DNA of 13,468 bases. It comes from a virus. Taxonomy: Duplodnaviria > Heunggongvirae > Uroviricota > Caudoviricetes. The notes beneath the pieces were generated by a model, which had not been told where the DNA came from, did not search any database, and worked only from the letters and a program-made list of their open reading frames with translations. Below, in pieces: positions 1 through 13,468 of the stretch. Location: IMG/VR virus record IMGVR_UViG_2526164634_000015, positions 1-13,468 of that record; one strand, written 5' to 3'. Every line of letters begins with the position of its first letter. Within the stretch, counting starts at the first letter, position 1. A program made the position numbers and the translations under genes.

Positions 1-317
1 TCGTTGCCGGCGTTACCGATATGTGTAAATCCTTCAACGGACTGGGAGAACAGGTACAACATGTGCTGAATGATAATCCCTTCTCCGGTCACCTGTTTAT
101 CTTCCGTGGCCGACGGGGGGACACCGTTAAAATTCTTTGGGCTGATGCTGATGGTCTGTGCCTGTTCACCAAACGCCTGGAGGAAGGCCAGTTTATCTGG
201 CCTGCGGTGCGTGACGGTAAGGTATCCATTACCCGCTCGCAACTGGCAATGCTCCTCGATAAGCTGGACTGGCGTCAGCCAAAAACATCCCGCCTTAACG
301 CCCTGACAATGTTGTAA
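1..317 (+). CDS. tnpB: IS66-family accessory protein TnpB (orf2), 5'-partial at window edge
   Basis: Translation ...VAGVTDMCKSFNGLGEQVQHVLNDNPFSGHLFIFRGRRGD...LCLFTKRLEEGQFIWP aligns along its length with the second TnpB copy at 1963-2310 (roughly 65% identical by eye); the reading frame is open back to base 1. Confidence 0.85.
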   Translation, partial: VAGVTDMCKSFNGLGEQVQHVLNDNPFSGHLFIFRGRRGDTVKILWADADGLCLFTKRLEEGQFIWPAVRDGKVSITRSQLAMLLDKLDWRQPKTSRLNALTML

Positions 318-341
318 AAAACACCTGGCCGCATTATAAAA
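1..341 (+). mobile_element. Truncated IS66-family element: 3' part of tnpB only, no orf3 and no terminal repeat; ends where the next IS begins
   Basis: TnpB-like ORF runs in frame from the window edge to a stop at 317; only 24 bp follow before the GTAA terminus of the adjacent element at 342. The expected downstream transposase gene is absent. Confidence 0.6.
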
Positions 342-363
342 GTAAGCGGCTCGTCAGAACCGT
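342..363. repeat. Terminal inverted repeat of the IS66-family element (transposase-proximal end)
   Basis: Begins 5'-GTAAGCG, the start I recall as typical of IS66-family termini; pairs with 3019-3040. Confidence 0.7.
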
Positions 364-371
364 ATTGATAT

Positions 372-1943
372 TTACTGAGAGCTCAGATCAACTTTCCAGG
401 GCAACAGATCGCGTACCCGGTTTGCCGGCCAGTCCTGGATATGTTCAATGACGTAGCGCAGCCACTTTTCTGGCTCCACATTGTTCAGACGGCATGTGCC
501 GATCAGCGAGTACAACACCGCCGCATGTTCACCATCGCTGTCGGAACCCGCGAACATCCAGTTTTTCCGGCCTACGGCCACTCCCCGTAAGGCGTTCTCT
601 GCGATGTTGTTGTCGATTTCCACCCAGCCATTACTGCAGTACACGTTCAGTGCATCCCACTGTTTCAGCAGGTATGCGAACGCTTTTGCCGTATCTGAGT
701 GACGCGACAGTGTTTTCATCTGTTGCTGTATCCAGTCATACAGTGACTGCATCAGTGGCGCGGCTCTGGTTTTTCTTGCCGCCAGACGCTGTTCTGCTGA
801 ACAGCCCCGGACCTCTGCCTCGATGGCATACAGTTCACCGATACGCTGCAGGGCTTCCGTGGTGATGTCGGTGGGCGCTCTTGCATGCACATCGTGGATT
901 TTTCTCCGGGCATGAGCCATACACGCGGCTTCCGTTATTCTGCCGGATTCGTATAACGCCCGGTAACCACCGTAAGCATCGGCCTGAAGCACACCGCTGT
1001 AACCGGCCAGGTGATTTTGTGGATGGATACCTTTCCGGTCCGGACTGTACGCGAACCAGACCGCCGGGGGCATCTGTGAACCGGCGTTACGGTCATCACG
1101 GACGTAGACCCACAGCCGGGCTGTCCGGGTTTACCGCTGCCCGGCTCCTGGACCGGGACGGGGATATCATCAGCATGGACTTTACCGGGCATCAGCACAT
1201 ACTGGCGCAGGACGTCATACTGCGGCTCCAGTAGTTCAGCAACGGCACCAGTCCAGCGCCCCAGTGTGGCACGGCTCAGCTCCACACCCTGACGGCGGTA
1301 TATCTCTGACTGGCGGTATAACGGCAGATGGTCTGCATATTTTCCGGTGACGACATGGGCCAGGAGCCCCGCTCCGGCATAACTGCGTGCAATGGGTTTT
1401 GAAGGCACCGGTGCCTGCACGATATGGTCGCACCGGCAACAGGCCAGTTTCGGACGTTGTGTTTCGATAACCTTAAAGGCGCTGCTGATAAGCTCCAGTT
1501 GCTCTGACACATCACATCCCAGAGAACTGAGTTCACCACCACAGGCAGGACAGCATTCCTCTTCCGGTCCGGATAACCCGGGTTTCACGGGGAAGTGAGG
1601 CCGGTAACGGTTTACGGGCTGAAGACTGGCGCAGGGCGGATGGCAGTACCGGGTCATATTGCTCACCCAGCGTTTCCGCCATTTCTTCCTGAAGTGCGCT
1701 GATTCGCTCCTGTGCTTCCTGTATCTGCCGTTCGGTTTTTGCACGAAGTTTTTCTGAGCTTTTACCGAACTGCATACGTTGCAGTTTCGCAACCAGCACC
1801 TTCAGCCGGTTGATTTCGGAAGCATAAGCCGCCACCCGCTGTGAGAGCAGGCGGTTGTATTCAGCCATCTGGCGTATGGTGTCCTGTTGCGTCTGCAACA
1901 GTGCCCGCAGGCGGGCGTTCTCATGAGCAAGTGAGGTGTCCAT
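372..1943 (-). pseudogene. tnpC: IS66-family transposase (orf3/TnpC) split over three reading frames by two single-base indels
   Basis: N-terminal leucine-zipper segment (ORF 1533-1943: MDTSLAHENARLRALLQ...), zinc-finger and middle segment (inside ORF 935-1792: PEEECCPACGGEL...[16 protein letters not shown]) and DDE C-terminal segment (ORF 372-1073: [15 protein letters not shown]...) are consecutive parts of one transposase in three frames. Frame switches lie near 1555-1580 and 1095-1130. Confidence 0.8.
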
Positions 1944-1962
1944 ATCCTCACTTTACAACGGG

Positions 1963-2310
1963 TTATATGCGGATTCCAGCGCGTTCCGTTCGTTTCGGGT
2001 GCTTCCAGTTGATACCTTCAAGAAGCATGGATAACTGAGCCGGAGTAAGGTGCACCTTGCCGTCACGGGTGACTGGCCAGACGAAGCGGCCCCGCTCCAG
2101 GCGTTTGGTGAAGAGGCACAGTCCGTCACTGTCAGCCCACAACACTTTTATCTGGTCACCCCGGCGTCCGCGGAAGATGAACAGGTGTCCGGAGAACGGG
2201 TCATCCTTCAGGACGTTCTGAACTTTTGATGCCAGGCCGTTAAAACCATTTCGCATATCGGTGATACCGGCAACCAGCCAGATACGCGAACCGGCAGGGA
2301 GAGATATCAT
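1963..2310 (-). CDS. tnpB: IS66-family accessory protein TnpB (orf2)
   Basis: 115-aa ORF MISLPAGSRIWLVAGITDMRNGFNGLASKVQNVLKDDPFSGHLFIFRGRRGD..., a recognisable IS66 Orf2; start overlaps the tnpA stop (ATGA). Confidence 0.9.
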   Translation of the reverse strand: MISLPAGSRIWLVAGITDMRNGFNGLASKVQNVLKDDPFSGHLFIFRGRRGDQIKVLWADSDGLCLFTKRLERGRFVWPVTRDGKVHLTPAQLSMLLEGINWKHPKRTERAGIRI

Positions 2311-2987
2311 CAGTGGCTGCTCCCTTTCATTTCGCGGATAAGTGTCTGTAATAACGCCGGCGTCAGTTTACCTTTAAGCCTGAGAGTTCCGGCCGGCAGA
2401 ATCAGCTCACAACACAGACTGTCGGACGGTGTATTTATCTGCTCTGGTTCCTGTGCGGGGGCCGGGATTTTATTATCCGGCTCCGGCGTTAACGTCACGG
2501 GAAGCAGTACCGGCATATTTTTTCCGGAAGGCAGCAGGCCACCTTTCCGGTATTGATGGCGCCAGTTGAAGAGCAGGTTATCGTTGATTCCGTTTTCCCG
2601 GGCGATCTGCGCCACACAGGCTCCGGGCTGCAGTGACTGCTCCACTAAGGCGATTTTAAACTCATAAGGGAAGTTGGGCCGCCGGGGACGTTTTTTTATC
2701 ACGGGGGCTTCGGATATAACGGTGTTTTCAGGACGTACGACTGGTACCGTGGAAAATTGTCCGTAAAGGCAGGCATCAAGTTCCTGCTCCGACATGCCTG
2801 CGGGCAAAGGCCACGAAAGGCCAGCTCTCCGAAAGCGCACGAACATATTACAAACTGTTGATTTTGGTACACCCAGGCGACGCCCGGCCACAACCCGGGG
2901 TAAATGTTCTTCAAAGTGAAGACGTAAAGCTTCAGTGATCCAGGTCCGGTGTTTCATACGATAGTGTCCATTAAAAATGATGGACAT
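2310..2987 (-). CDS. tnpA: IS66-family accessory protein TnpA (orf1), long form with two helix-turn-helix-like regions; true start may be an internal Met
   Basis: C-terminal half (RPRRPNFPYEFKIALVEQSLQPGACVAQIARENGINDNLLFNWRHQYRKGG) looks like an IS66 Orf1 / IS3-type HTH; lies inside the IS about 53 bp from the 3040 terminus and is coupled to tnpB. Confidence 0.75.
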   Translation of the reverse strand: MSIIFNGHYRMKHRTWITEALRLHFEEHLPRVVAGRRLGVPKSTVCNMFVRFRRAGLSWPLPAGMSEQELDACLYGQFSTVPVVRPENTVISEAPVIKKRPRRPNFPYEFKIALVEQSLQPGACVAQIARENGINDNLLFNWRHQYRKGGLLPSGKNMPVLLPVTLTPEPDNKIPAPAQEPEQINTPSDSLCCELILPAGTLRLKGKLTPALLQTLIREMKGSSH

Positions 2988-3018
2988 TATTTTTGTAGAG
3001 CCGGAGGAAACAGACCAG

Positions 3019-3040
3019 ACGGTTTAAATGAGCCGGTTAC
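3019..3040. repeat. Terminal inverted repeat of the IS66-family element (tnpA-proximal end)
   Basis: ...AGCCGGTTAC ends at 3040; its reverse complement starts GTAACCGGCTC and pairs with 342-363. Confidence 0.7.
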
Positions 3041-3051
3041 GATAAATATCC

Positions 3052-3585
3052 ATGAACACCAAAATCAAATACGGCCTGTCGGCTGCCGTTCTGGCGCTGA
3101 TTGCCGCTGGTGCGTCTGCGCCTGACATTCTCGATCAGTTTCTGGATGAAAAGGAAGGCAATCACACCACGGCATACCGTGATGGTGCAGGTATCTGGAC
3201 CATCTGCCGTGGTGCCATCATGGTGGATGGCAAACCTGTCGTTCCGGGCATGAAGTTGTCGAAGGAAAAATGCGACCAGGTTAACGCCATTGAGCGTGAT
3301 AAAGCGCTGGCGTGGGTGGAGAAAAACATCAAAGTGCCATTGAGCGAACCCCAGAAAGCGGGGATCGCGTCATTCTGTCCGTACAACATTGGTCCCGGTA
3401 AGTGTTTCCCGTCGACGTTTTATAAACGAATTAATGCAGGTGATCGCAGGGGAGCGTGTGAGGCGATTCGCTGGTGGATTAAGGACGGTGGCAGAGACTG
3501 CCGTATTCGTTCAAACAACTGCTACGGTCAGGTATCCCGTCGTGACCAGGAGAGCGCGCTGGCGTGCTGGGGTATCGACAGATAA
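3052..3585 (+). CDS. Phage endolysin, T4-lysozyme-like (GH24) with an N-terminal signal-anchor-release (SAR) type hydrophobic segment
   Basis: 177-aa ORF; N-terminus MNTKIKYGLSAAVLALIAAGASAP is a weakly hydrophobic Ala/Gly-rich segment; E-x8-D-x5-T catalytic spacing in EGNHTTAYRDGAGIWT; followed by Rz/Rz1 as in lambdoid lysis cassettes. Confidence 0.9.
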   Translation: MNTKIKYGLSAAVLALIAAGASAPDILDQFLDEKEGNHTTAYRDGAGIWTICRGAIMVDGKPVVPGMKLSKEKCDQVNAIERDKALAWVEKNIKVPLSEPQKAGIASFCPYNIGPGKCFPSTFYKRINAGDRRGACEAIRWWIKDGGRDCRIRSNNCYGQVSRRDQESALACWGIDR

Positions 3586-3675
3586 GCAGAATATTTTGCT
3601 GAAAAATAAAGCATGGCCACGCGGGCGGATAACATGAAATCCTGCGAACTGGCGAAACGTAAGTGAATAAAAGTA

Positions 3676-3712
3676 AAAACCCCGTTTGTTGGCACCAAGC
3701 GGGGTTTTGTGT
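3676..3712 (+). terminator. Intrinsic (rho-independent) terminator downstream of the endolysin gene
   Basis: AAAA-CCCCGTTTG-(loop)-CAAGCGGGG-TTTTGTGTTT: GC-rich stem of about 9 bp followed by a T-run, with an A-run upstream so it could act in both directions. Confidence 0.6.
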
Positions 3713-3744
3713 TTCCTGACTCCGGAAAAGTCAAAGGAGAAAGT

Positions 3745-3882
3745 GTGTTTGATTTTAGCAAACTGATTCGGGAGATTCGAGTGATGGCTGAAAAATTATC
3801 CACCTGGAAGTTCATTCTTATCTGGCTGGTGTTTGTGATTATGGCCTCCGGTTATTTCATCGGTCAGATACGCTGGTGGTGA
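3745..3882 (+). CDS. Small predicted single-pass membrane protein (45 aa from GTG 3745, or 32 aa from ATG 3784), stop overlapping the Rz start region
   Basis: AGGAG at 3734-3738 lies 6 nt before the GTG; translation [45 protein letters not shown] has one hydrophobic helix; its TGA (3880-3882) is 1 nt before the Rz ATG (3884). Too short to appear in the ORF track. Confidence 0.35.
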
Positions 3883-3883
3883 A

Positions 3884-4348
3884 ATGAACCGCGTACTGTG
3901 CGTAGTCATCATTGCCCTGCTGGTGGCCTGTGGTGCGCTTAGTCTGGGGCTGAATCATTACCGTGATAACGCCATTACCTACAAAGCCCAGCGCGACAAA
4001 AATGTCAGAGAACTGAAGCTGGCGAACGCGGCAATTACTGACATGCAGATGCGTCAGCGTGATGTTGCTGCGCTCGATGCAAAATACACGAAGGAGTTAG
4101 CTGATGCGAAAGCTGAAAATGATGCTCTGCGTGATGATGTTGCCGCTGGTCGTCGTCGGTTGCACATCAAAGCAGTCTGTCAGTCAGTGCGTGAAGCCAC
4201 CACCGCCTCCGGCGTGGATAATGCAGCCTCCCCCCGACTGGCAGACACCGCTGAACGGGATTATTTCACCCTCAGAGCGCGACTGATAATAATGCAAAAA
4301 CAACTTGAAGGGGCACAGCTATACATTCGAGAGCAATGCCTCAGATAA
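3884..4348 (+). CDS. Rz: Spanin inner-membrane subunit Rz (i-spanin)
   Basis: 154 aa; N-terminal TM helix ([20 protein letters not shown]) then a charged coiled-coil-like region; contains the embedded Rz1 frame; follows the endolysin. Confidence 0.85.
4104..4286 (+). CDS. Rz1: Spanin outer-membrane lipoprotein subunit Rz1 (o-spanin), embedded in the +1 frame of Rz
   Basis: 60 aa; signal peptide with lipobox (LVVVGC) and Pro-rich mature part (PPPPPAW...PPPDW); entirely inside Rz in another frame, the classic Rz/Rz1 arrangement. Confidence 0.8.
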
Positions 4349-4655
4349 AAACCGGCCAAGGATAATCCGCTGAAGATTCGCCGGTGGCTAAAGTGTGCCA
4401 AGAGTTCAATTTACGCAATTACTCCAGTCGATGCTATGCACCGTCTTTGTGAAGTCAATGGATACCTGATTTATTTCTGTGCGCTGTATCGTCGCTGTAC
4501 TCTTGCATTAATTATGACTGTAGCCTGACGGGGAACTCCTTCTGCACAAGTGTGGGGGAATAATCAAAAACGATGCACACCGGGGTTACCGGGTACACAT
4601 ATTTCATCATGCCAGCGAGTCCGGTTCTGGCACGGAAGAAACCGGACGTTATGAT

Positions 4656-5081
4656 TTAGTGCGGAAATATTTGTGTAGTGTTCTGAATGTTCTCAGTAAA
4701 GAGTAATGAATTATCAAAGGTATAGTAATACCTTTTGTTTTCGTGGATATTTGTAATCCATCTGAAAACCCCTGCTGTAGCAAGATTTTTCCTGTATTCG
4801 TAAAATGATAACTCTCCTGATTTGAATCCTTTTAAGGTGGCTTCTATAAGGCATTTATTTTTTGAAAATCTTACATTTACAACCTTACCCTGTCCTTTTA
4901 TTAAAACCGTATTATCGTTTTCAAGAACAAGATGAATATTCTCTGTGGCTAAATAGTAAATGTAATGTGAGACATTGTGACGTTTTAGTTCAGAATAAAA
5001 CCAGTGATAGTTTAAATTATTTCGCACTTTATCGAATATTTGTTTAAAAATGGCAACCTGAGCCATTGTAGTACCTTCCAT
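4656..5081 (-). CDS. AT-rich moron gene; hypothetical protein, tentatively DUF1398 family (YbcV/YdfO-like) from memory
   Basis: 141-aa ORF in a segment of about 33% GC (by eye), far below neighbouring phage genes; position between Rz1 and cos/terS matches where I recall ybcV/ydfO-like genes in E. coli K-12 cryptic prophages. Start may be the internal Met (MAQVAIF...). Confidence 0.6.
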
Positions 5082-5123
5082 GTGATATGAGGGGGCGTAG
5101 TCTGCACGATTATCTAAATTGCT

Positions 5124-5357
5124 TCAATCTGGTCTGACCTGTTTTCTGAGCAATTCAGTAATGTCACTCTTTTCTTTGTTTGCTTCAGGCGAAACTCTTT
5201 TTACTGAGCACAGTCTCCGGCGGCAGGCTTCAATGACCCAGGCTGAGAAATTCCCGGACCCTTTTTGAACAAGAGCGATGTTAATTTGTTCAATCATCTG
5301 GTTTGGAAATCGGATGTTGCGGGTTGTTGTTCTGCGGGTTCTGTTCTTTGATGACAT
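5124..5357 (-). CDS. Small ribbon-helix-helix-like protein, tentatively DUF3950 family (YlcI/YnfO-like) from memory
   Basis: 77-aa ORF with a basic N-terminus followed by TRNIRFPNQMIEQINIALVQKGSGNFSAWVIEACRRRL, an RHH-like strand-helix-helix pattern; co-oriented 42 bp upstream of the 141-aa gene. Confidence 0.55.
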   Translation of the reverse strand: MSSKNRTRRTTTRNIRFPNQMIEQINIALVQKGSGNFSAWVIEACRRRLCSVKRVSPEANKEKSDITELLRKQVRPD

Positions 5358-5563
5358 AATGTTTCCCCATATTCAGTGTTGCTGATTTGTATTATCTGAA
5401 GTTGCTTTTACGTTAATTTGACGCAGATCAATCAATACGATACCTGCGTCATAATTGATTATTTCTCGTGGTTTGATGGCGTACACACATGTTGTGATAA
5501 ACCTTATATAGATGATAATCATTATCATTTCGTGGGTCCTTTCCGGCGATCCGGGCCGTTACG

Positions 5564-5575
5564 GGGCGGCGACCT
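5564..5575 (+). other. cosN cohesive-end sequence (12-nt GGGCGGCGACCT) of a lambda-type cos site
   Basis: 5358-5608 reads like the junction of the lambda right and left genome ends (...GATGATAATCATTATCA...CCGTTACG | GGGCGGCGACCT | CGCGGGTTTTCGCTATTTATGAAAATTTTCCGG) as I recall them, immediately upstream of the small terminase gene. Confidence 0.85.
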
Positions 5576-5758
5576 CGCGGGTTTTCGCTATTTATGAAAA
5601 TTTTCCGGGATCCATGTCCGGTTTCTCTTCAAGTTAACTATATGAAAAATATAAAAACAGGTCTTCTGTGAACCGGACATGAACAAAAAACAGACATGTA
5701 AACCGGACATGACCGGTTTTGTTGTGATTGTGAGGTGAGAGTTTTTGCGAGGTGAGGA
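5576..5758 (+). promoter_or_regulatory. cosB-like terminase binding region: one inverted and two direct copies of an AACCGGACATG motif flanking an A/T-rich candidate IHF site
   Basis: CATGTCCGGTT at 5613-5623 (inverted), AACCGGACATG at 5671-5681 and 5701-5711 (direct, 30 bp apart), A/T-rich stretch 5631-5660 between the inverted and direct copies; parallels the lambda R3-I1-R2-R1 layout with a different motif. Confidence 0.65.
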
Positions 5759-6268
5759 GTGGCTACGCAGACTGAAGTTGCCAGGCATTTAAGTCTGACC
5801 GATCGCCAGCTTCGCAGATTGCAGAAATTGCCGGGTGCCCCGATATCGAATAAGCGAGGGCAACTGGATCTGGATGCCTGGCGCGATTTTTACATATCGT
5901 ATCTGAGGAGAAGTAAAAACGATGTGCCTGATGGCGATAGCGAAGACGACTATGAGGAGAAATTGCTTATTGCCAGATGGGAACTGACAGCAGAACAGGC
6001 TGTTACACAGCAGTTAAAAAATGAGGTGTCAAAAGGAAAACTTATTGACACCGGGTTCTGTATTTTTGCCCTCAGTAAGCTGGCAATGGCGTTATCCAGT
6101 ACGCTTGATTCCATCCCTTTATCCATGCAGCGACAGTTTCCTGATTTAACACCGCGCCATCTTGACCATCTGAAAACCCTTATTGCGAAGGGGGCAAATC
6201 AGTGTGCGCGGGCAGGGGATAAATTACCGGATTTACTCGATGAATATATCAGAGCAACAACTGAATAA
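5759..6268 (+). CDS. Terminase small subunit (Nu1-like DNA-recognition subunit), GTG start
   Basis: 169 aa; N-terminal HTH-like TQTEVARHLSLTDRQLRRL; sits directly after cosB and overlaps the terL start by 29 nt, as Nu1/A do in lambda; GAGG 6-7 nt upstream of the GTG. Confidence 0.75.
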   Translation: MATQTEVARHLSLTDRQLRRLQKLPGAPISNKRGQLDLDAWRDFYISYLRRSKNDVPDGDSEDDYEEKLLIARWELTAEQAVTQQLKNEVSKGKLIDTGFCIFALSKLAMALSSTLDSIPLSMQRQFPDLTPRHLDHLKTLIAKGANQCARAGDKLPDLLDEYIRATTE

Positions 6269-8167
6269 TATGGTGGCCGCCGTTTCGGTTGCGCTGCAGC
6301 CTCTGGTCAGGGTTGTACCGATGACGGCAGTTGAATGGGCTGACCAGTATTATTATCTGCCGAAAGAATCCTCATACGGTGACGGCGAATGGAAAACGCT
6401 GCCGTTCCAGATCGCCATCATGAACAGTATGGGGAATGATCAGATCCGCACTGTTAATCTGATTAAATCTGCCCGTGTTGGCTATACAAAGATGTTGCTG
6501 GGAGTCGCCGGGTATTTTATTGAGCATAAATCCCGAAACAGTCTGCTTTTTCAGCCCACGGATTCTGCCGCTGAAGATTTTATGAAGTCTCACGTGGAGG
6601 CGACGATTCGGGACGAGCCATGCCTGAAAGATCTTTCCCCGTGGCTGGGTCGTAAACATCGTGACAATACTCTCACGCTGAAACGCTTTTCATCGGGGGT
6701 GGGCTTCTGGTGCCTGGGTGGTGCGGCAGCAAAAAACTACCGTGAAAAATCCGTGGACGTGGTCTGCTATGACGAACTTTCCTCGTTCGAGCCGGATGTC
6801 GAAAAAGAGGGCTCGCCAACCCTGCTGGGGGATAAGCGTATTGAGGGCTCGGTATGGCCAAAATCCATTCGCGGCTCGACGCCTAAAATAAAAGGCTCCT
6901 GCCAGATCGAAAAAGCGGCCAACGAGTCGGCGCATTTCATGCGTTTTTATGTGTCCTGCCCGCACTGTGGGGAGGCGCAGTATCTGAAATTTGGCGATGA
7001 GTCCACGCCTTTTGGCCTTAAATGGGAGAAGGACAGCCCCGAAAGCGTTTTCTACCTCTGTGAACATCATGGCTGCGTGATCCATCAGTCTGAGCTTGAC
7101 CAGAGCAACGGGCGGTGGATCTGCGAAAACACGGGCATGTGGACCCGCGACGGTCTGACGTTTTTCAGCGCCCGGATAATGAAATTCCGCCGCCGCGCTC
7201 CATCACATTTCATATCTGGACGGCGTACAGTCCGTTCACCACCTGGGTACAGATTGTCTATGACTGGCTGGATGCACTGAAAGATCCCAACGGCCTGAAA
7301 ACCTTTGTGAACACCACGCTGGGCGAGACCTGGGAAGAGGCCGTGGGCGAAAAACTCGATCACCAGGTGCTGATGGATAAGGTTGTGCGTTACACGGCTG
7401 CGGTGCCTTCCCGGGTGGTTTATCTGACGGCGGGCATTGACTCGCAGCGAAACCGTTTTGAGATGTATGTCTGGGGATGGGCTCCGGGAGAGGAAGCCTT
7501 TCTGGTGGATAAAATCATCATTATGGGGCGTCCCGATGAGGAAGAGACGCTGTTACGTGTGGATGTGGCGATCAACAAAAAATACCGCCATGCAGACGGA
7601 ACCGAAATGACCATTTCCCGTGTCTGCTGGGACACCGGGGGGATCGATGGCGAAATTGTCTATCAGAGGTCAAAAAAACACGGTGTTTTCCGGGGGCTGC
7701 CGGTAAAAGGTGCATCTGTTTATGGCAAGCCGGTGATCACCATGCCAAAAACCCGCAATCAGCGGGGCGTGTATCTGTGCGAAGTGGGGACGGACACCGC
7801 AAAAGAAATTCTCTATGCCCGTATGAAAGCCGATCCCACGCCTGCGGATGAAGCCACGTCGTATGCCATCCGTTTTCCTGATGATCCGGAGATTTTTTCG
7901 CAGACAGAGGCGCAGCAACTGGTGGCGGAAGAGCTGGTGGAGAAGTGGGAAAAAGGAAAGATGCGTCTGCTGTGGGATAACAAAAAGCGGCGTAACGAAG
8001 CGCTGGACTGCCTGGTGTATGCCTACGCGGCATTACGTGTGTCCGTGCAACGCTGGCAGCTTGATCTGGCTGTACTGGCAAAATCCCGGGAAGAAGAGAC
8101 GACCCGGCCAACCCTGAAAGAACTGGCAGCGAAGCTGTCCGGAGGAGTGAATGGTTACAGTCGCTGA
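6240..8167 (+). pseudogene. A: Terminase large subunit (lambda gpA-like), interrupted by a -1 frameshift near 7170-7175
   Basis: ORF 6183-7280 (real start MNISEQQLNNM at 6240) matches the gpA N-terminal half as I recall it (TAVEWADQYYYLPKES..., GYTKMLLGVAGYFIEHK, KRFSSGVGFWCLGGAAAKNYREKSVDV); ORF 7115-8167 in another frame continues with ITFHIWTAYSPFTTWVQIV...KRRNEALDCLVYAYAALR. One base appears missing in the GCCCGG run around 7170-7175. Confidence 0.85.
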
Positions 8168-8357
8168 ACTGCAGGCGCTGCGTCAGGCGCGCCTTGATTT
8201 ATTAACCGGTAAACGGGTGGTGTCTGTCCAGAAAGATGGTCGCAGAATTGAATATACGGCGGCTTCTCTGGATGAGCTTAACCGGGCGATCAATGATGCG
8301 GAGTCGGTACTGGGGACAACCCGACGTCGCCGTCGTCCGCTGGGAGTGAGGTTATGA
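8151..8357 (+). CDS. W: Head completion / head-tail joining protein (lambda gpW-like)
   Basis: 68 aa, MVTVAELQALRQARLDLLTGKRVVSVQKDGRRIEYTAAS..., close to lambda W as I recall it; stop overlaps the portal start. Confidence 0.85.
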   Translation: MVTVAELQALRQARLDLLTGKRVVSVQKDGRRIEYTAASLDELNRAINDAESVLGTTRRRRRPLGVRL

Positions 8358-9946
8358 AACGAACGCCTGTCCTGATTGATGTGAACGGCGTTCCGCTTCG
8401 TGAGAGTCTCAGCTACAACGGGGGCGGCGCAGGATTTGGCGGGCAAATGGCGGAGTGGTTGCCACCGGCGCAGAGTGCCGATGCAGCCCTGCTGCCTGCG
8501 TTGCGTCTGGGGAATGCCCGGGCAGATGATCTGGTGCGCAATAACGGAATAGCGGCTAATGCGGTGGCCCTGCATAAGGATCACATTGTCGGGCATATGT
8601 TTCTGATCAGCTACCGTCCGAACTGGCGCTGGCTGGGGATGCGGGAGACCGCAGCAAAAAGCTTTGTCGATGAGGTGGAGGCGGCCTGGTCGGAATACGC
8701 AGAAGGGATGTCTGGCGAGATCGACGTGGAAGGAAAACGCACATTTACGGAGTTTATCCGTGAAGGTGTTGGCGTTCATGCGTTTAACGGCGAAATCTTT
8801 GTGCAGCCGGTCTGGGATACGGAAACCACGCAGTTATTCCGTACGCGTTTTAAAGCCGTGAGTCCGAAACGGGTGGACACGCCAGGACACGGTATGGGGA
8901 ACCGTTTTCTGCGGGCCGGGGTGGAGGTCGATCGATATGGCCGTGCCGTTGCGTACCATATCTGTGAGGATGATTTTCCTCGCTCCGGGAGTGGACGATG
9001 GGAACGGATCCCGCGTGAACTTCCCACCGGGCGTCCGGCCATGCTGCATATTTTCGAGCCGGTGGAGGACGGGCAGACCCGTGGGGCCAATCAGTTTTAC
9101 AGCGTCATGGAACGGCTGAAGATGCTCGATTCCCTGCAGGCAACACAGCTTCAGTCGGCCATAGTGAAGGCGATGTATGCAGCGACGATTGAAAGTGACC
9201 TTGATACCGAAAAGGCCTTTGAATATATCGCCGGCGCGCCACAGGAGCAGAAGGATAATCCGCTTATTAATATTCTGGAGAAGTTCTCCAGCTGGTATGA
9301 CACGAATAACGTGACACTGGGCGGTGTCAAAATTCCGCACCTTTTCCCTGGTGATGATCTGAAACTACAGACTGCGCAGGATTCAGACAATGGATTTTCG
9401 GCGCTTGAACAGGCGCTGCTGCGGTATATCGCCGCCGGTCTTGGCGTTTCCTACGAACAGTTGTCCCGGGATTACTCGAAGGTCAGTTATTCAAGTGCCC
9501 GCGCCTCCGCCAATGAGTCGTGGCGCTATTTTATGGGACGACGAAAATTTATTGCGTCCCGGCTGGCCACGCAGATGTTTTCCTGCTGGCTGGAAGAGGC
9601 ACTTCTTCGGGGGATTATTCGTCCGCCACGGGCGCGTTTTGATTTTTATCAGGCGCGATCAGCCTGGTCACGGGCTGAGTGGATTGGAGCCGGAAGAATG
9701 GCCATTGACGGGCTCAAGGAGGTTCAGGAATCGGTGATGCGCATTGAGGCCGGACTGAGCACGTATGAGAAAGAGCTGGCGCTGATGGGCGAGGATTATC
9801 AGGACATTTTCCGCCAGCAGGTCAGGGAATCTGCAGAGCGGCAAAAAGCCGGACTCTCACGTCCGGTGTGGATAGCGCAGGCGTATCAGCAGCAGATAGC
9901 GGAGAGTCGCAGGCCGGAAGAGGAGACAACACCCCGTGAGACGTAA
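8354..9946 (+). CDS. B: Portal protein (lambda gpB-like)
   Basis: 530 aa, collinear with my recollection of lambda gpB over the whole length (GGGAGFGGQ..., NARADDLVRNNG, FEPVEDGQTRGAN, LQSAIVKAMYAATIES, GRMAIDGLKEVQE); no frame disruption. Confidence 0.9.
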   Translation: MKRTPVLIDVNGVPLRESLSYNGGGAGFGGQMAEWLPPAQSADAALLPALRLGNARADDLVRNNGIAANAVALHKDHIVGHMFLISYRPNWRWLGMRETAAKSFVDEVEAAWSEYAEGMSGEIDVEGKRTFTEFIREGVGVHAFNGEIFVQPVWDTETTQLFRTRFKAVSPKRVDTPGHGMGNRFLRAGVEVDRYGRAVAYHICEDDFPRSGSGRWERIPRELPTGRPAMLHIFEPVEDGQTRGANQFYSVMERLKMLDSLQATQLQSAIVKAMYAATIESDLDTEKAFEYIAGAPQEQKDNPLINILEKFSSWYDTNNVTLGGVKIPHLFPGDDLKLQTAQDSDNGFSALEQALLRYIAAGLGVSYEQLSRDYSKVSYSSARASANESWRYFMGRRKFIASRLATQMFSCWLEEALLRGIIRPPRARFDFYQARSAWSRAEWIGAGRMAIDGLKEVQESVMRIEAGLSTYEKELALMGEDYQDIFRQQVRESAERQKAGLSRPVWIAQAYQQQIAESRRPEEETTPRET

Positions 9947-11440
9947 TCTTTCACACATTATTGCCGCAGCATTCAATGAACCGCTGCTTCTGGAGCCCGC
10001 CTATGCGCGGGTTTTCTTTTGCGCGCTCGGGCGCGAGATGGGGCAGCAAGTCTTTCGGTACCACAGCAGCAGGTACAGCTTGATGCTCCCGGAATGCTGG
10101 CTGAAACGGACGAGTACATGGCCGGAGGTAAACGACCGGCCCGTGTTTACCGGGTGGTGAACGGTATTGCTGTACTGCCGGTGACCGGCACGCTGGTGCA
10201 CCGGCTGGGGGGTATGCGGCCATTTTCCGGAATGACAGGCTATGACGGTATTGTCGCCTGTCTTCAGCAGGCAATGGCGGATAGCCAGGTGCGGGGCGTA
10301 CTGCTGGACATTGACAGTCCGGGCGGGCAGGCCGCCGGCGCGTTTGACTGCGCTGACATGATTTACCGCCTCCGTCAGCAGAAGCCGGTCTGGGCACTGT
10401 GCAATGACACGGCCTGTTCTGCAGCCATGCTGCTGGCATCGGCCTGCTCCCGACGGCTGGTTACCCAGACATCCCGTATCGGCTCCATTGGCGTGATGAT
10501 GAGCCATGTCAGCTATGCCGGTCATCTGGCGCAGGCCGGTGTGGATATCACGCTGATTTACTCAGGGGCGCACAAGGTGGATGGCAATCAGTTTGAAGCC
10601 TTACCGGCAGAGGTTCGCCAGGACATGCAGCAGCGCATTGATGCGGCGCGCCGGATGTTTGCCGAAAAAGTGGCGATGTTTACCGGTCTGTCTGTTGATG
10701 CCGTCACGGGAACAGAGGCCGCCGTTTTTGAAGGTCAGTCCGGCATTGATGCCGGGCTGGCGGATGAATTAGTCAATGCGTCGGATGCCATCAGTGTGAT
10801 GGCCACGGCGCTGAACAGTAATGTCAGAGGAGGCACTATGCCGCAATTAACTGCAACGGAAGCCGCCGCGCAGGAGAACCAGCGAGTGATGGGGATCCTG
10901 ACATGCCAGGAAGCGAAAGGACGTGAACAGCTTGCCACGATGCTGGCAGGACAACAGGGCATGAGCGTTGAACAGGCCCGGGCGATTCTGGCCGCGGCGG
11001 CACCGCAGCAGCCGGTGGCATCCACGCAGAGTGAAGCCGATCGCATTATGGTGTGTGAAGAAGCGAACGGTCGTGAACAACTGGCGGCAACGCTGGCGGC
11101 GATGCCGGAGATGACGGTGGAAAAAGCCCGCCCGATCCTGGCTGCTTCACCGCAGGCGGATGCCGGACCCTCACTCCGTGATCAGATCATGGCACTGGAT
11201 GAGGCAAAAGGGGCTGAGGCGCAGGCTGAACAGCTGGCTGCCTGCCCGGGAATGACTGTGGAGAGCGCCCGGGCTGTGCTGGCTGCGGGATCAGGTAAGG
11301 CAGAACCGGTCTCTGCATCCACAACCGCCCTGTTTGAACGCATCATGGCGAACCATTCACCGGCTGCGGTACAGGGTGGCGTGCCACAGACGTCAGCAGA
11401 CGGTGATGCGGACGTGAAAATGCTCATGGCCATGCCATGA
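9936..11440 (+). pseudogene. C: Head maturation protease / scaffold (lambda gpC-Nu3-like, S49 peptidase family), -1 frameshift near 10040-10075; C-terminal scaffold-like part holds three protein-level repeats
   Basis: GTG start at 9936 gives ...LSHIIAAAFNEPLLLEPAYARVFFCALG (gpC-like N-terminus) and then runs into a stop; the rest of gpC (VNGIAVLPVTGTL..., LDIDSPGG, PVWALCND, SIGVMMSHV) is in ORF 10019-11440 in another frame. Confidence 0.8.
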
Positions 11441-11476
11441 AGTCAGTGCTGACCATCAACAGGAGGTTTTTACAAT

Positions 11477-11824
11477 ATGGTGACGAAAACTATCACTGAA
11501 CAGCGTGCGGAAGTACGTATTTTTGCCGGTAATGATCCGGCTCATACCGCCACAGGCAGCAGCGGGATTTCCTCGGCAACACCGGCACTGACGCCCCTGA
11601 TGCTGGATGAAGCCACCGGGAAACTGGTGGTCTGGGACGGACAAAAAGCCGGTAGTGCGGTTGGCATACTGGTACTGCCGCTTGAAGGCACAGAGACGGC
11701 GCTGACCTATTACAAGTCGGGGACCTTTGCGACGGAGGCAATCCGCTGGCCTGAAAGTGTGGATGAACACAAAAAGGCCAATGCCTTTGCCGGCAGTGCC
11801 CTGAGTCACGCGGCGCTGCCGTAA
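11477..11824 (+). CDS. D: Head decoration protein (lambda gpD-like)
   Basis: 115 aa; DPAHTATG...TPLMLDEATGKLVVWDG...VGILVLP...YYKSGTF resembles lambda gpD as I recall it; AGGAGG 10 nt upstream of the ATG. Confidence 0.85.
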   Translation: MVTKTITEQRAEVRIFAGNDPAHTATGSSGISSATPALTPLMLDEATGKLVVWDGQKAGSAVGILVLPLEGTETALTYYKSGTFATEAIRWPESVDEHKKANAFAGSALSHAALP

Positions 11825-11831
11825 CACGTTA

Positions 11832-11851
11832 TCAGGCCACCGCGGTGGCCT
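11832..11851 (+). other. Perfect 20-bp palindrome (CAGGCCACCGCGGTGGCCTG) in the D-E intercistronic region; candidate RNA stem-loop
   Basis: The sequence is its own reverse complement; sits 8 nt after the D stop and 30 nt before the E start; no T-run follows, so more likely a processing or stability element than a terminator. Confidence 0.4.
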
Positions 11852-11881
11852 GACTGATTTCTGAATGAAAGGAACTGATTT

Positions 11882-12913
11882 ATGGGATTGTTTACGACCC
11901 GCCAGTTACTCGGTTATACCGAACAAAAAGTGAAATTTCGTGCGCTGTTTCTGGAGCTGTTTTTCCGCCGTACGGTGAATTTCCATACCGAAGAGGTGAT
12001 GCTGGACAAAATTACCGGAAAAACGCCGGTGGCGGCCTATGTCTCCCCGGTTGTTGAAGGAAAAGTGCTGCGTCATCGCGGTGGTGAAACCCGCGTGTTA
12101 CGTCCGGGCTACGTCAAGCCGAAACACGAATTTAATTACCAGCAGGCGGTTGAGCGTCTTCCCGGTGAAGAGTCCGGCTCAGCTGAACGACCCGGCCTAC
12201 CGTCGTCTGCGTATCATCACTGATAACCTCAAACAGGAAGAGCACGCCATTGTCCAGGTGGAAGAAATGCAGGCGGTGAATGCCGTGCTGTATGGCAAAT
12301 ACACGATGGAAGGAGACCAGTTCGAGAAAATTGAGGTCGATTTTGGCAGGTCGACGAAGAATAACATCACTCAGGGTAGTGGTAAGGAGTGGTCAAAAAC
12401 AGGATCGTGACACGTTCGATCCTACACATGATCTTGACCTACTACTGCGACCAGGCCAGCGGTCTTGTGAATATTGCCATTATGGACGGTACCGTCTGGC
12501 GTCTGCTGAATGGCTTTAAATTGTTCCGCGAAAAACTGGATACCCGTCGCGGCTCTAATTCGCAACTCGAAACAGCGGTGAAAGACCTGGGCGCGGTGGT
12601 GTCCTTCAAAGGGTATTACGGCGATCTGGCCATTGTGGTGGCAAAAACGTCTTATGTGGCAGAGGACGGTACCGAAAAACGTTATCTGCCTGAGGGCTCG
12701 CTGGTCCTGGGGAATACGGCAGCAGAGGGCATTCGTTGCTATGGTGCCATTCAGGATGCGCAGGCGTTGTCCGAAGGTGTGGTGGCCTCTTCCCGTTATC
12801 CGAAACACTGGCTGACGGTAGGGGATCCCGCCCGTGAATTTACCATGACGCAGTCCGCGCCGCTGATGGTGTTGCCGGACCCGGATGAGTTTGTGGTGGT
12901 ACAGGTGAAATAA
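11882..12913 (+). pseudogene. E: Major capsid protein (lambda gpE-like) interrupted by three +1 single-base insertions (about 12173, 12395, 12440) that together restore the original frame
   Basis: Segments in four ORFs (11882-12223, 12039-12410, 12280-12519, 12389-12913) each match consecutive stretches of gpE as I recall it (KPKHEFNYQQ..., DPAYRRLRII...VEEMQAV..., DTFDPTHD, ...KLDTRRGSNS...SRYPKHWLTVGDPAREFTMTQSAPLMVLPDPDEFVVVQV). Confidence 0.85.
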
Positions 12914-12918
12914 TCCGT

Positions 12919-12950
12919 GAGCGGGGGCGAAATGCCCCCGTGTCTTTTTT
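12919..12950 (+). terminator. Stem-loop with T-run directly after the capsid gene; candidate intrinsic terminator or attenuator
   Basis: GCGGGGGC-GAAAT-GCCCCCG followed by TGTCTTTTTTC, between the E stop and the FI start. Confidence 0.45.
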
Positions 12951-12964
12951 CACAGGGGGATGAT

Positions 12965-13339
12965 ATGGCAACGAAAGAGCAAAATCTGAAACGGTTTGAT
13001 GAACTGGCCCTGATTCTGGGGCGTGAGCCGGATATATCCGGGAGTGCCGCAGAGATAGCGCAGCGGGTGGCAGAATGGGAAGAGGAAATGCAGTCATCCG
13101 GCGATGATGTACAGGTTATGAATATGGATATCCGGGAGAGGGAAAACGCGGCTCATGATGTTCGTGAGGAAACATCCGGCGCGTTAACGCGCATCAGAGT
13201 TCTGACCTGCCTCCATCTCTGTGGCGTTGATGGTGAAACGGGGGAATCCGTTGAGCTTGCGGATGTTGGTCGGGTGATTCTGATTATGTCCTCAGATGCA
13301 AAAACACACGTTGATGGTGGAATGGCTGTTTATGCGTGA
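12965..13339 (+). CDS. FI: DNA packaging protein (lambda gpFI-like)
   Basis: 124 aa from the ATG at 12965 (GGGGGA RBS-like run just upstream); acidic protein in the gpFI position between E and FII; sequence similarity to lambda FI is weak, so the call rests mainly on synteny. Confidence 0.6.
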   Translation: MATKEQNLKRFDELALILGREPDISGSAAEIAQRVAEWEEEMQSSGDDVQVMNMDIRERENAAHDVREETSGALTRIRVLTCLHLCGVDGETGESVELADVGRVILIMSSDAKTHVDGGMAVYA

Positions 13340-13468
13340 TTTTCAGAATGCCTTTGATGCCGCCCTTGCCGGGGTGGACAGTACGATTGTTGAAGTGATG
13401 GGCATCAGTGCGCAGTTCACCTCCGGTGCACAGCGTGGCGGCGAAGTTCAGGGGGTTTTTGACGATCC
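13332..13468 (+). CDS. FII: Head-tail connector protein (lambda gpFII-like), 3'-partial at window edge
   Basis: ATG at 13332 overlaps the FI stop; translation MRDFQNAFDAALAGVDSTIVEVMGISAQFTSGAQRGGEVQGVFDD parallels the N-terminus of lambda FII as I recall it. Confidence 0.7.
   Translation, partial: MRDFQNAFDAALAGVDSTIVEVMGISAQFTSGAQRGGEVQGVFDD

Follow-up and report, generated by a model that had tools for sequence, protein, structure and literature searches.

The DNA analysed here, a stretch of 13,468 nucleotides from a virus of the Caudoviricetes (IMG/VR record IMGVR_UViG_2526164634_000015, positions 1 to 13,468; the whole stretch is called the window below), carries genes of a lysis module. 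A signal-anchor-release (SAR)-type endolysin gene, R, occupies positions 3052–3585 of the plus strand and encodes a 177-residue protein of the lysozyme family with an N-terminal SAR-like hydrophobic stretch (PF00959, E = 2.4e-24; PHROG 7, endolysin). Downstream on the same strand lie the gene for the i-spanin Rz (3884–4348; PF03245, E = 1.4e-52) and, embedded in it, the gene for the o-spanin Rz1, a lipoprotein (4104–4286; PF06085, E = 5.4e-20). An original prediction, made from the sequence alone, had drawn attention to a gap of about 300 bp between R and Rz that holds a hairpin with a T-run and a short open reading frame (ORF) with a good Shine-Dalgarno (SD) sequence, a single predicted transmembrane (TM) helix and a stop codon 1 nt before the Rz start, and all of these are in place. 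The spacer measures 298 bp (3586–3883). Its first part, 3586–3675 on the plus strand, is the non-coding 3' tail of the endolysin module, as judged by alignment with prophage Sp10 of E. coli O157 Sakai. It is followed by a hairpin with a 13-bp stem (hairpin 1, 3676–3716, both strands), a second hairpin (hairpin 2, 3712–3740, plus strand), the SD sequence AAGGAG (SD1, 3734–3739, plus strand), which ends 5 nt before the start codon, and a 45-codon ORF (3745–3882, plus strand) that belongs to PHROG 6632 and runs from a GTG at 3745 to a TGA at 3880–3882. Direct reading of the junction (3880–3886, plus strand) shows TGA, one base, and the ATG of Rz, which begins at 3884. We present evidence that hairpin and ORF form one horizontally mobile cassette and propose, with a probability of roughly 55% as judged from its sequence features, that the cassette encodes a tightly silenced, late-expressed membrane protein resembling type I toxins or holin/antiholin pairs.

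Coding status and predicted structure of the small protein

The 45-residue product matches PHROG 6632, catalogued there as of unknown function, over its full length (E = 1.2e-29, residues 1–45 of a 45-position profile), and distant relatives match the same family with E-values of 1e-12 to 1e-23. A wider sweep yielded 66 unique ORF sequences, and a search with a hidden Markov model returned 41 cluster representatives, mostly of 42–54 residues, together with some fragments and N-terminally extended calls; the core kept across the family is E-x-R-x-M...W-(K/R)-F. All 20 intact homologues that were first compared have exactly 45 codons, without insertions or deletions. An SD sequence was found in 44 of 47 distinct family members, and the start codon is GTG in 45 of the 66 unique ORFs, TTG in 12 and ATG in only 9. 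When the window type is compared with divergent relatives, dS is 0.5–2.2 and dN 0.06–0.37, so that dN/dS ranges from 0.09 to 0.26. The pooled pN/pS is 0.31 in frame as opposed to 0.85 and 1.67 in the shifted frames, and codons 14–45 taken alone give the same picture (0.31 versus 0.82 and 1.58). The search for conservation and purifying selection that had been proposed as a check on the original prediction has thus come out on the side of a gene, and the ORF is almost certainly a genuine coding sequence under purifying selection. The opposite view, that it is a chance frame in a spacer and the hairpin merely the terminator of the endolysin gene, could appeal to its shortness, its GTG start, the fact that it is uncalled in most phage records, and the presence of a single terminator-like match, which is within chance for the region. 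That view is refuted by the conservation analysis and is hardly tenable: frame, length and start are kept from E. coli to Pseudomonas phages, selection in frame is far stronger than in the shifted frames, whose ratios are near or above 1, and the hairpin moves with the ORF and not with the endolysin.

The description of the ORF as unannotated holds for the majority of phage records and fails elsewhere, for it is called by PGAP in some RefSeq genomes (WP_000459345.1), is included in PHROG 6632 and appears in the CP-1639 annotation as a "putative bacteriophage protein". N-terminally extended annotations of 64–86 residues also exist (locus L003, 2078–2296, in Stx2_EH2201; proteins P0004, P0011 and P0036); they run through the hairpin region and look like start-codon miscalls from an open upstream frame. 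Two other frames in the spacer region were dropped: a 17-codon ORF at 3614–3667, whose ATG is not kept in relatives, and a 95-codon minus-strand ORF at 3528–3815, a hypothetical protein in CP-1639, which is contradicted by the plus-frame substitution pattern and is probably a spurious call. Searches of Pfam, NCBIfam and PADLOC with the 45-residue peptide returned no family; in particular, no Pfam family scored above cut-off, hence there is no Hok/Gef match, and no holin family was matched in Pfam, PHROGs or NCBIfam. A literature search found no functional study of the protein accession or of small proteins upstream of Rz. The catalogues of small proteins of E. coli K-12 are uninformative here because the equivalent genes of its Qin prophage, rrrQ and rzpQ, overlap by 4 nt and the ORF is absent.

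AlphaFold predicts one continuous helix over residues 4–44, with a confidence score (predicted local distance difference test, pLDDT) of 86.7. The hydrophobic stretch at about residues 22–42 (3808–3870, plus strand), which contains a G36xxxG40 motif, is the predicted TM segment, and the protein ends directly after it with GQIRWW. From the distribution of charges we infer an N-in/C-out topology, which would probably place the N-terminal amphipathic segment on the cytoplasmic side. This segment holds the family's best-conserved residues (E10, R12, M14 and F23). With 45 residues and a single predicted TM helix the protein falls within the size and hydrophobicity range of type I toxins (membrane proteins of fewer than 60 residues), and it also answers to the description of holins as small TM proteins encoded in a lysis cassette.

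Leader hairpins and signals at the 5' end of the gene

Hairpin 1, the left end of the cassette, consists of an A-tract, a stem-loop of 13 pairs, 6 of them G-C (3676–3688 with 3696–3708), around a 7-nt loop, and a T-run; its extent was defined by folding and covariation. The GC-rich stem-loop with its tail GTGTTTCC, U-rich in the transcript (UUUUGUGUUUCC), has the make-up of an intrinsic terminator. The opposite strand carries a U-tract as well (UUUUUACUUUUAUU) and, since the stem is flanked by both an A-tract and a T-tract, the element is terminator-like on either strand. It was the sole terminator-like site in a scan of 2900–4700; as 1.8 matches are expected there, the scan alone is not above chance, and the significance of the hairpin comes from its conservation and covariation. 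The fold has an energy of −18.9 kcal/mol (z = −3.7), and none of 200 shuffled sequences was as stable. In an alignment of 23 diverse sequences, on which the covariation results for both hairpins are based, compensatory changes are seen in 9 of its 13 pairs, with 94% of cells paired. The hairpin stands about 35 nt 5' of the start codon in nearly all family members, including those whose proteins are only 35–45% identical. It is stable on both strands, and the strand preferred, as measured by G-U/A-C asymmetry and folding energy, differs between clades; outside the E. coli clade the antisense strand is equal or better.

Hairpin 2 is part of the minimum-free-energy fold, in which a UUUCCU tail pairs with AGGAGA and buries SD1. 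Its inner helix of 5 bp is 91% paired, with compensatory changes in 3 of the 5 pairs (CCUUG/CAAGG alternates with CGUUA/UAACG), and the outer helix, between a UUUCU tail and the SD (GAGAA), is 90% paired; according to RNAalifold this is the only conserved structure in its region. For the two hairpins together, 92.7% of cells are paired, compared with 37–57% after sliding the 3' partners, compensatory changes occur in 13 of 23 pairs, and the covariation score was reached in none of 500 shuffles. On these grounds the leader hairpins are very probably functional. Rfam gave no match at the gathering score anywhere in the window and, within 3400–4000, only sub-threshold terminator look-alikes (E <= 10). 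No sigma-70-like site was detected on the plus strand of 3586–3745, nor a sense promoter inside the conserved unit. A promoter-like site on the minus strand (3867–3838) found in a scan is not kept in relatives and was dropped. A terminator-like hairpin upstream, a buried SD and a weak start codon are together the hallmark of a gene with a product that has to be kept at a low level.

The first codons of the ORF are constrained beyond their coding function. Synonymous diversity (pS) is 0.27 in codons 2–13 and 0.76 in codons 14–45, a 2.8-fold difference. Among 13 divergent sequences, D3 (GAT), residue 4 (NTT), S5 (AGC) and R12 (CGA) have invariant codons, Arg9 is always CGG or AGG (xGG) and Glu10 always GAG; codons 7–8 and 13–45 vary freely. 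RNAalifold found no conserved structure of the sense RNA over codons 1–25 that would account for this pattern. Two candidate signals, an internal SD and an extended −10 promoter element on the minus strand, would together explain most of it. The first (SD2, GGAG at 3771–3774) precedes Met14, whose ATG (3784–3786) is a candidate second start (3771–3786 overall, plus strand). An SD-like motif (GGAG, GAGGTG or AAGGAG) lies 6–9 nt before this ATG in 41 of the 44 members with a conserved Met, and gene callers chose it as the start in several genomes (32-residue proteins P0022 and P0023). A second, 32-residue isoform (3784–3882) that lacks the N-terminal amphipathic segment is therefore suggested by the sequence, at slightly less than even odds. 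The invariant codons 10–12 were also considered as an antisense −35 element and rejected, as they give only 3 of 6 matches and codons 9–10 are better fitted by SD2.

The candidate extended −10 element, TGCTAAAAT, is located on the minus strand at 3752–3760, where it overlaps codons 3–6; the motif TGNTAWWAT occurs nowhere else in the 13.5-kb window. The pattern TGnTAnnnT is found at the same position in 56 of the 66 unique ORFs. It is kept despite differing amino acids (TGCTAGAAT, TGCTAATGT, TGATAAACT), in Pseudomonas phages of 58–63% GC, which use the AT-ending codons GAT and TTT there, and in a paralogous family, PHROG 12997, whose N-terminal sequence differs. Ser5 is always AGC, never AGT or TCN. 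This codon provides the G of the "TG" as well as the initial T of the hexamer, and a selective pressure towards AU-rich sequence would not account for such a choice. Taken with the terminator-like character of hairpin 1, the promoter position predicts an antisense RNA of about 80 nt (3668–3746, minus strand) that would begin at the start codon of the ORF, at about 3745, and have its 3' end at hairpin 1 and the U-tract mentioned above. The predicted RNA folds at −23.2 kcal/mol (z = −3.4) into a terminator stem-loop that leaves the 5' end free, and it is complementary to SD1, hairpin 2 and the GTG start and not to SD2 and ATG14. We put the existence of this cis-antisense RNA at not quite an even chance.

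If such an RNA is made, it could conceivably be the main product: a small RNA (sRNA) "moron" on the minus strand that acts in trans on host or phage mRNAs, with the ORF secondary. The most conserved stretch of the cassette, from hairpin 1 to about codon 12, coincides with the predicted sRNA gene and its promoter, the leader is common to PHROG 6632 and PHROG 12997, and short sRNAs that end at a terminator abound in lambdoid prophages (PMC4104026). Purifying selection, however, acts along the entire ORF, also in the TM region well away from the putative sRNA, the length of 45 codons is kept in all of the 20 intact homologues, and Rfam holds no match, which makes this explanation very unlikely.

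A mobile cassette in late operons

Alignment with Sakai prophage Sp10 delimits the element. Sp10 matches the window over 3041–3678 (89.7% identity), diverges, and matches again from 3881; between the two matches it carries an antirepressor gene and an ORF for a 48-residue TM protein. The cassette therefore extends over about 3679–3880, 3586–3675 belongs to the endolysin module, and the proposal that something had been inserted between endolysin and Rz is borne out. The Sakai prophages Sp15 and Sp6 have the same antirepressor-type insert as Sp10. The small TM ORF of this alternative insert (compared loci L109, 4378–5275, in Sp10; L110 in Sp15; L118 in Sp6), ECs_1966, belongs to PHROG 4906, begins with MGWLM and ends 7 nt before the Rz ATG, and is thus a second, unrelated small membrane protein at the pre-Rz position.

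The unit recurs in a fixed order: A-tract, GC hairpin, T-tract, about 35 nt, SD, start codon and ORF. In lysis cassettes it is found behind five combinations of holin and endolysin (pinholin with SAR lysozyme, holin_2_3 with lysozyme, holin_3_1 with an unclassified endolysin, holin_8 with GH19, and holin_3_1 with GH108) and before i-spanins of two unrelated families, PF03245 and DUF2514. Elsewhere it stands between the baseplate V and W/J genes (Salmonella phage SEN34, Yersinia, Dryocola), after Baseplate_J and DUF2612, after a tail fibre gene, after the gene for an LPD38 protein, among the tail genes of Pseudomonas phage YMC11/02/R656, and beside ParE and HicAB modules upstream of the terminase. 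About one instance in three of those sampled comes from outside a lysis cassette, a proportion affected by sampling bias. These data show that the hairpin and the ORF are one horizontally mobile cassette of late operons, which ranges from phages of Enterobacterales to those of Pseudomonas. The hairpin is accordingly not a mere terminator placed in the gap, as had been assumed; it belongs to the cassette and is kept with the ORF in every context.

The spacer sequence is present in 2007 of 5426 complete E. coli genomes, with at least 80% of its length in 871, and in many phages encoding the Shiga toxins (Stx) Stx1 and Stx2. Homologues were detected in E. albertii, E. fergusonii, Salmonella, Citrobacter, Edwardsiella, Yersinia, Izhakiella, Sodalis, Brenneria, Symbiopectobacterium, Providencia and Trabulsiella, and further ones in Pseudomonas phages and metagenomes. 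The paralogous PHROG 12997 (loci L008, 2755–2907, and L027, 2088–2246) comprises small TM proteins of 50–52 residues that end with (K/R)WW. Like PHROG 6632, it has the leader hairpins, a TGCTA motif on the minus strand and an SD with ATG inside the ORF, and its gene can stand in tandem with a PHROG 6632 gene. Tandem family members, one with an aberrant N-terminus, also occur in some viral contigs (L165 and L166, 1465–1892), which suggests duplication and decay of the cassette.

The wide range of contexts bears on the idea, raised in the original prediction, that the protein is a dedicated spanin accessory factor or a lysis regulator that is coupled to Rz and acts with the Rz-Rz1 complex. The junction with the spanin gene is strikingly regular: wherever an i-spanin gene follows, the stop codon is 1 nt before its ATG (130 of 130 instances), for both i-spanin families and behind several endolysin types. 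The predicted N-in/C-out single TM segment would resemble the membrane anchor of Rz, and the alternative insert places a different small TM ORF at the same spot. An obligate association with spanin genes nevertheless fails. Members with the same leader reside in baseplate, tail-fibre, Pseudomonas tail and toxin-antitoxin surroundings without an adjacent spanin, contexts outside lysis cassettes make up the third of the sample mentioned above, and conservation of the protein is highest in the segment before the TM helix, which is predicted to be cytoplasmic and would not offer a periplasmic surface for contact with spanins. A spanin-specific role is hence unlikely, and the coupling to Rz is best seen as the docking mode of the cassette in lambdoid phages, which gives no evidence of such a function.

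Mobility among late genes also recalls the morons of lambdoid phages, e.g., HK97 gp15 (Juhala et al. 2000, as cited in PMC4104026). Classical morons are transcribed in the prophage from an upstream promoter of their own, with a terminator following the gene. Like morons, the cassette is extra DNA cleanly inserted between conserved late genes, both in tail and baseplate operons and in moron-rich regions, has a mosaic distribution over phages of several host genera and encodes a small, predicted single-pass membrane protein, a common type of moron product. It could then be a gene for lysogenic conversion or superinfection exclusion, comparable to HK97 gp15 or Cor, whose product acts on a host membrane protein or on incoming DNA. 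Its layout is the reverse of that expected, however: the terminator-like hairpin is at the start instead of the end, the conserved unit yielded no sense promoter, and translation is apparently restrained, as a sequestered SD and non-ATG starts are hard to reconcile with steady expression in a lysogen. PADLOC gave no match either, and we regard a moron of this type as distinctly improbable.

The flanks of the lysis genes in the window deserve a brief description. Positions 1–3046 are taken up by an IS66-family insertion sequence, ISCro1, with tnpA, tnpB and tnpC on the minus strand and a 99.8% match to ISCro1 copies; it ends about 6 nt short of position 3052, where the endolysin ATG begins. The insertion therefore separates the endolysin, cassette and spanin genes from the holin gene and the late promoter, and this copy of the cassette may no longer be expressed as designed. 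On the other side, the window at 4516–4598 has 82% identity to the region just 3' of Rz in Sakai Sp10 where EcOnc11 lies. EcOnc11, with its homologues EcOnc10 and EcOnc12, is among the most abundant candidate sRNAs bound by Hfq in enterohaemorrhagic E. coli and is antisense to the late operon; a homologue is probably encoded on the minus strand of the window at about 4516–4598. In the table of sRNAs obtained by cross-linking and analysis of cDNA with Hfq (Hfq-CRAC), EcOnc11 is located 3' of Rz and EcOnc33 inside the nanS-p gene.

Possible function and consequences

How the parts of the cassette might work together can be outlined as follows. Without a sense promoter the gene would depend on read-through from upstream. 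The terminator-like hairpin at the 5' end would stop stray read-through in the lysogen, hairpin 2 would pair with SD1 on any leaked mRNA, and the GTG or TTG start codon would be a weak one. As a fourth restraint, the predicted cis-antisense RNA of about 80 nt, with its promoter in codons 3–6 and its end at hairpin 1 as read on the other strand, would act on what remains. The gene would thus stay off in the lysogen. In lambdoid phages the Q-modified polymerase reads through terminators, and upon induction Q-modified or otherwise heavy late transcription would pass hairpin 1 and yield more mRNA than the antisense RNA can match. Made perhaps in two isoforms, the protein would then insert into the inner membrane late in infection beside the lysis proteins, and in lambdoid cassettes docking 1 nt before the i-spanin ATG would keep the translation of Rz coupled.

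The closest precedent is hokW-sokW of the Stx2 phage Sp5, in which a small membrane toxin is paired with a 71-nt cis-antisense RNA; it is produced upon prophage induction, speeds lysis and doubles phage release (PMC8621323), a contribution comparable to the role predicted here. Both systems have a small single-pass inner-membrane protein of lambdoid Stx prophages and a structured leader that limits translation. The sokW RNA acts in cis against the leader and the ribosome-binding region of its target, and the RNA of about 80 nt predicted for the cassette would do likewise. They differ in that the 45-residue protein has no sequence homology to its counterpart and the antisense terminator of the cassette is at its 5' edge, where it doubles as a terminator-like hairpin of the sense strand; furthermore, the antisense RNA and the toxicity of the cassette are predictions.

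A second parallel is the S gene of phage lambda, a dual-start holin/antiholin gene for S105 and S107 with an sdi stem-loop upstream. It shares with the cassette a small membrane protein encoded among the lysis genes, two in-frame starts with their own or a shared SD (here as a candidate second start) and, at the upstream SD, a hairpin in the RNA by which the proportion of the two products would be set. In contrast, the cassette protein has one TM helix where lambda S has three, its starts are 13 codons apart instead of 2, and it matches no holin family of Pfam or PHROGs and occurs outside lysis cassettes as well. The window's own holin gene is out of view, with ISCro1 just upstream of the endolysin, and related loci have a separate holin gene upstream, so that the ORF is not the holin of the cassette. 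With respect to position, lysA of phage P2 is similar: this membrane-protein gene reportedly lies between the endolysin gene K and the i-spanin gene lysB, is non-essential and may tune the timing of lysis. LysA, however, is much larger, has several TM segments and an unrelated sequence, and is not known to have a hairpin leader or antisense RNA.

Several observations weigh against the proposal of a silenced toxin- or holin/antiholin-like unit. Classical type I toxin genes, hokW among them, have their own promoter, which was not found for the ORF, and conservation of the unit begins at hairpin 1. The protein stops at RWW and so lacks the hydrophilic, charged C-terminal domain of lambda S and other dual-start holins. 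In the E. coli clade hairpin 1 has a slight preference for the sense strand (−19 to −24 kcal/mol, versus −14 to −15 for the antisense strand), and in SEN34 and other viable phages it stands upstream of essential baseplate genes, so that it cannot be an efficient sense-strand terminator there and must permit substantial read-through. The −35 region of the candidate antisense promoter is poor (3 of 6 matches), and conservation of codons 3–6 is partly confounded by that of the amino acids D-F-S-K. Neither SD2 nor the extended −10 element accounts for the CGA codon of Arg12 (3778–3780), which all 13 of the divergent enterobacterial homologues share with several of those from Pseudomonas phages; CGA is a rare codon in E. 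coli. The Hfq-CRAC table of E. coli O157 Sakai (Tree et al. 2014) contains no sRNA in an R–Rz gap, but it is uninformative on this point because the inspected prophages Sp6, Sp10 and Sp15 carry the alternative insert in place of the cassette. Finally, the literature search retrieved no expression, translation or phenotype data on any family member.

The likeness to type I toxins and to dual-start holin/antiholin genes, together with the precedent of hokW-sokW, leads us to favour a membrane-active, lysis-modulating protein over the other explanations. By analogy with these systems, its most likely role would be that of a potent membrane-active factor that modulates late membrane events such as the timing of lysis. 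The product may also be toxic. A function in lysis timing, already suggested in the original prediction, is plausible, and a role in lysis is put forward tentatively, at somewhat less than an even chance. A more far-reaching idea, and one we consider rather unlikely, is that the cassette is the first known member of a new class of antisense-guarded, dual-start small membrane proteins carried in late operons by temperate phages of Enterobacterales and Pseudomonas. In such a class one bidirectional terminator would both block stray sense transcripts and form the 3' terminus of the antisense RNA, and the isoforms of 45 and 32 residues would be an effector/inhibitor pair that tunes the timing of membrane failure at lysis. 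If this is true, the cassette would represent a third regulatory layer in the lysis cassettes of Stx phages and, hence, in the release of Shiga toxin.

To our knowledge, no study has dealt with a conserved membrane protein at the endolysin–spanin position that has several layers of expression control. New in the present analysis are the covariation in the leader, the sequestration of SD1, the bias towards GTG and TTG starts, the candidate second start with SD2 and ATG14, and the candidate antisense promoter. The gene has been overlooked in most phage annotations, and its synonymous sites appear to encode the promoter for its own antisense regulator. The cassette adjoins the endolysin and spanin genes, whose expression frees the phage and Shiga toxin, and it may supply a modulator of lysis timing that has so far been missing.

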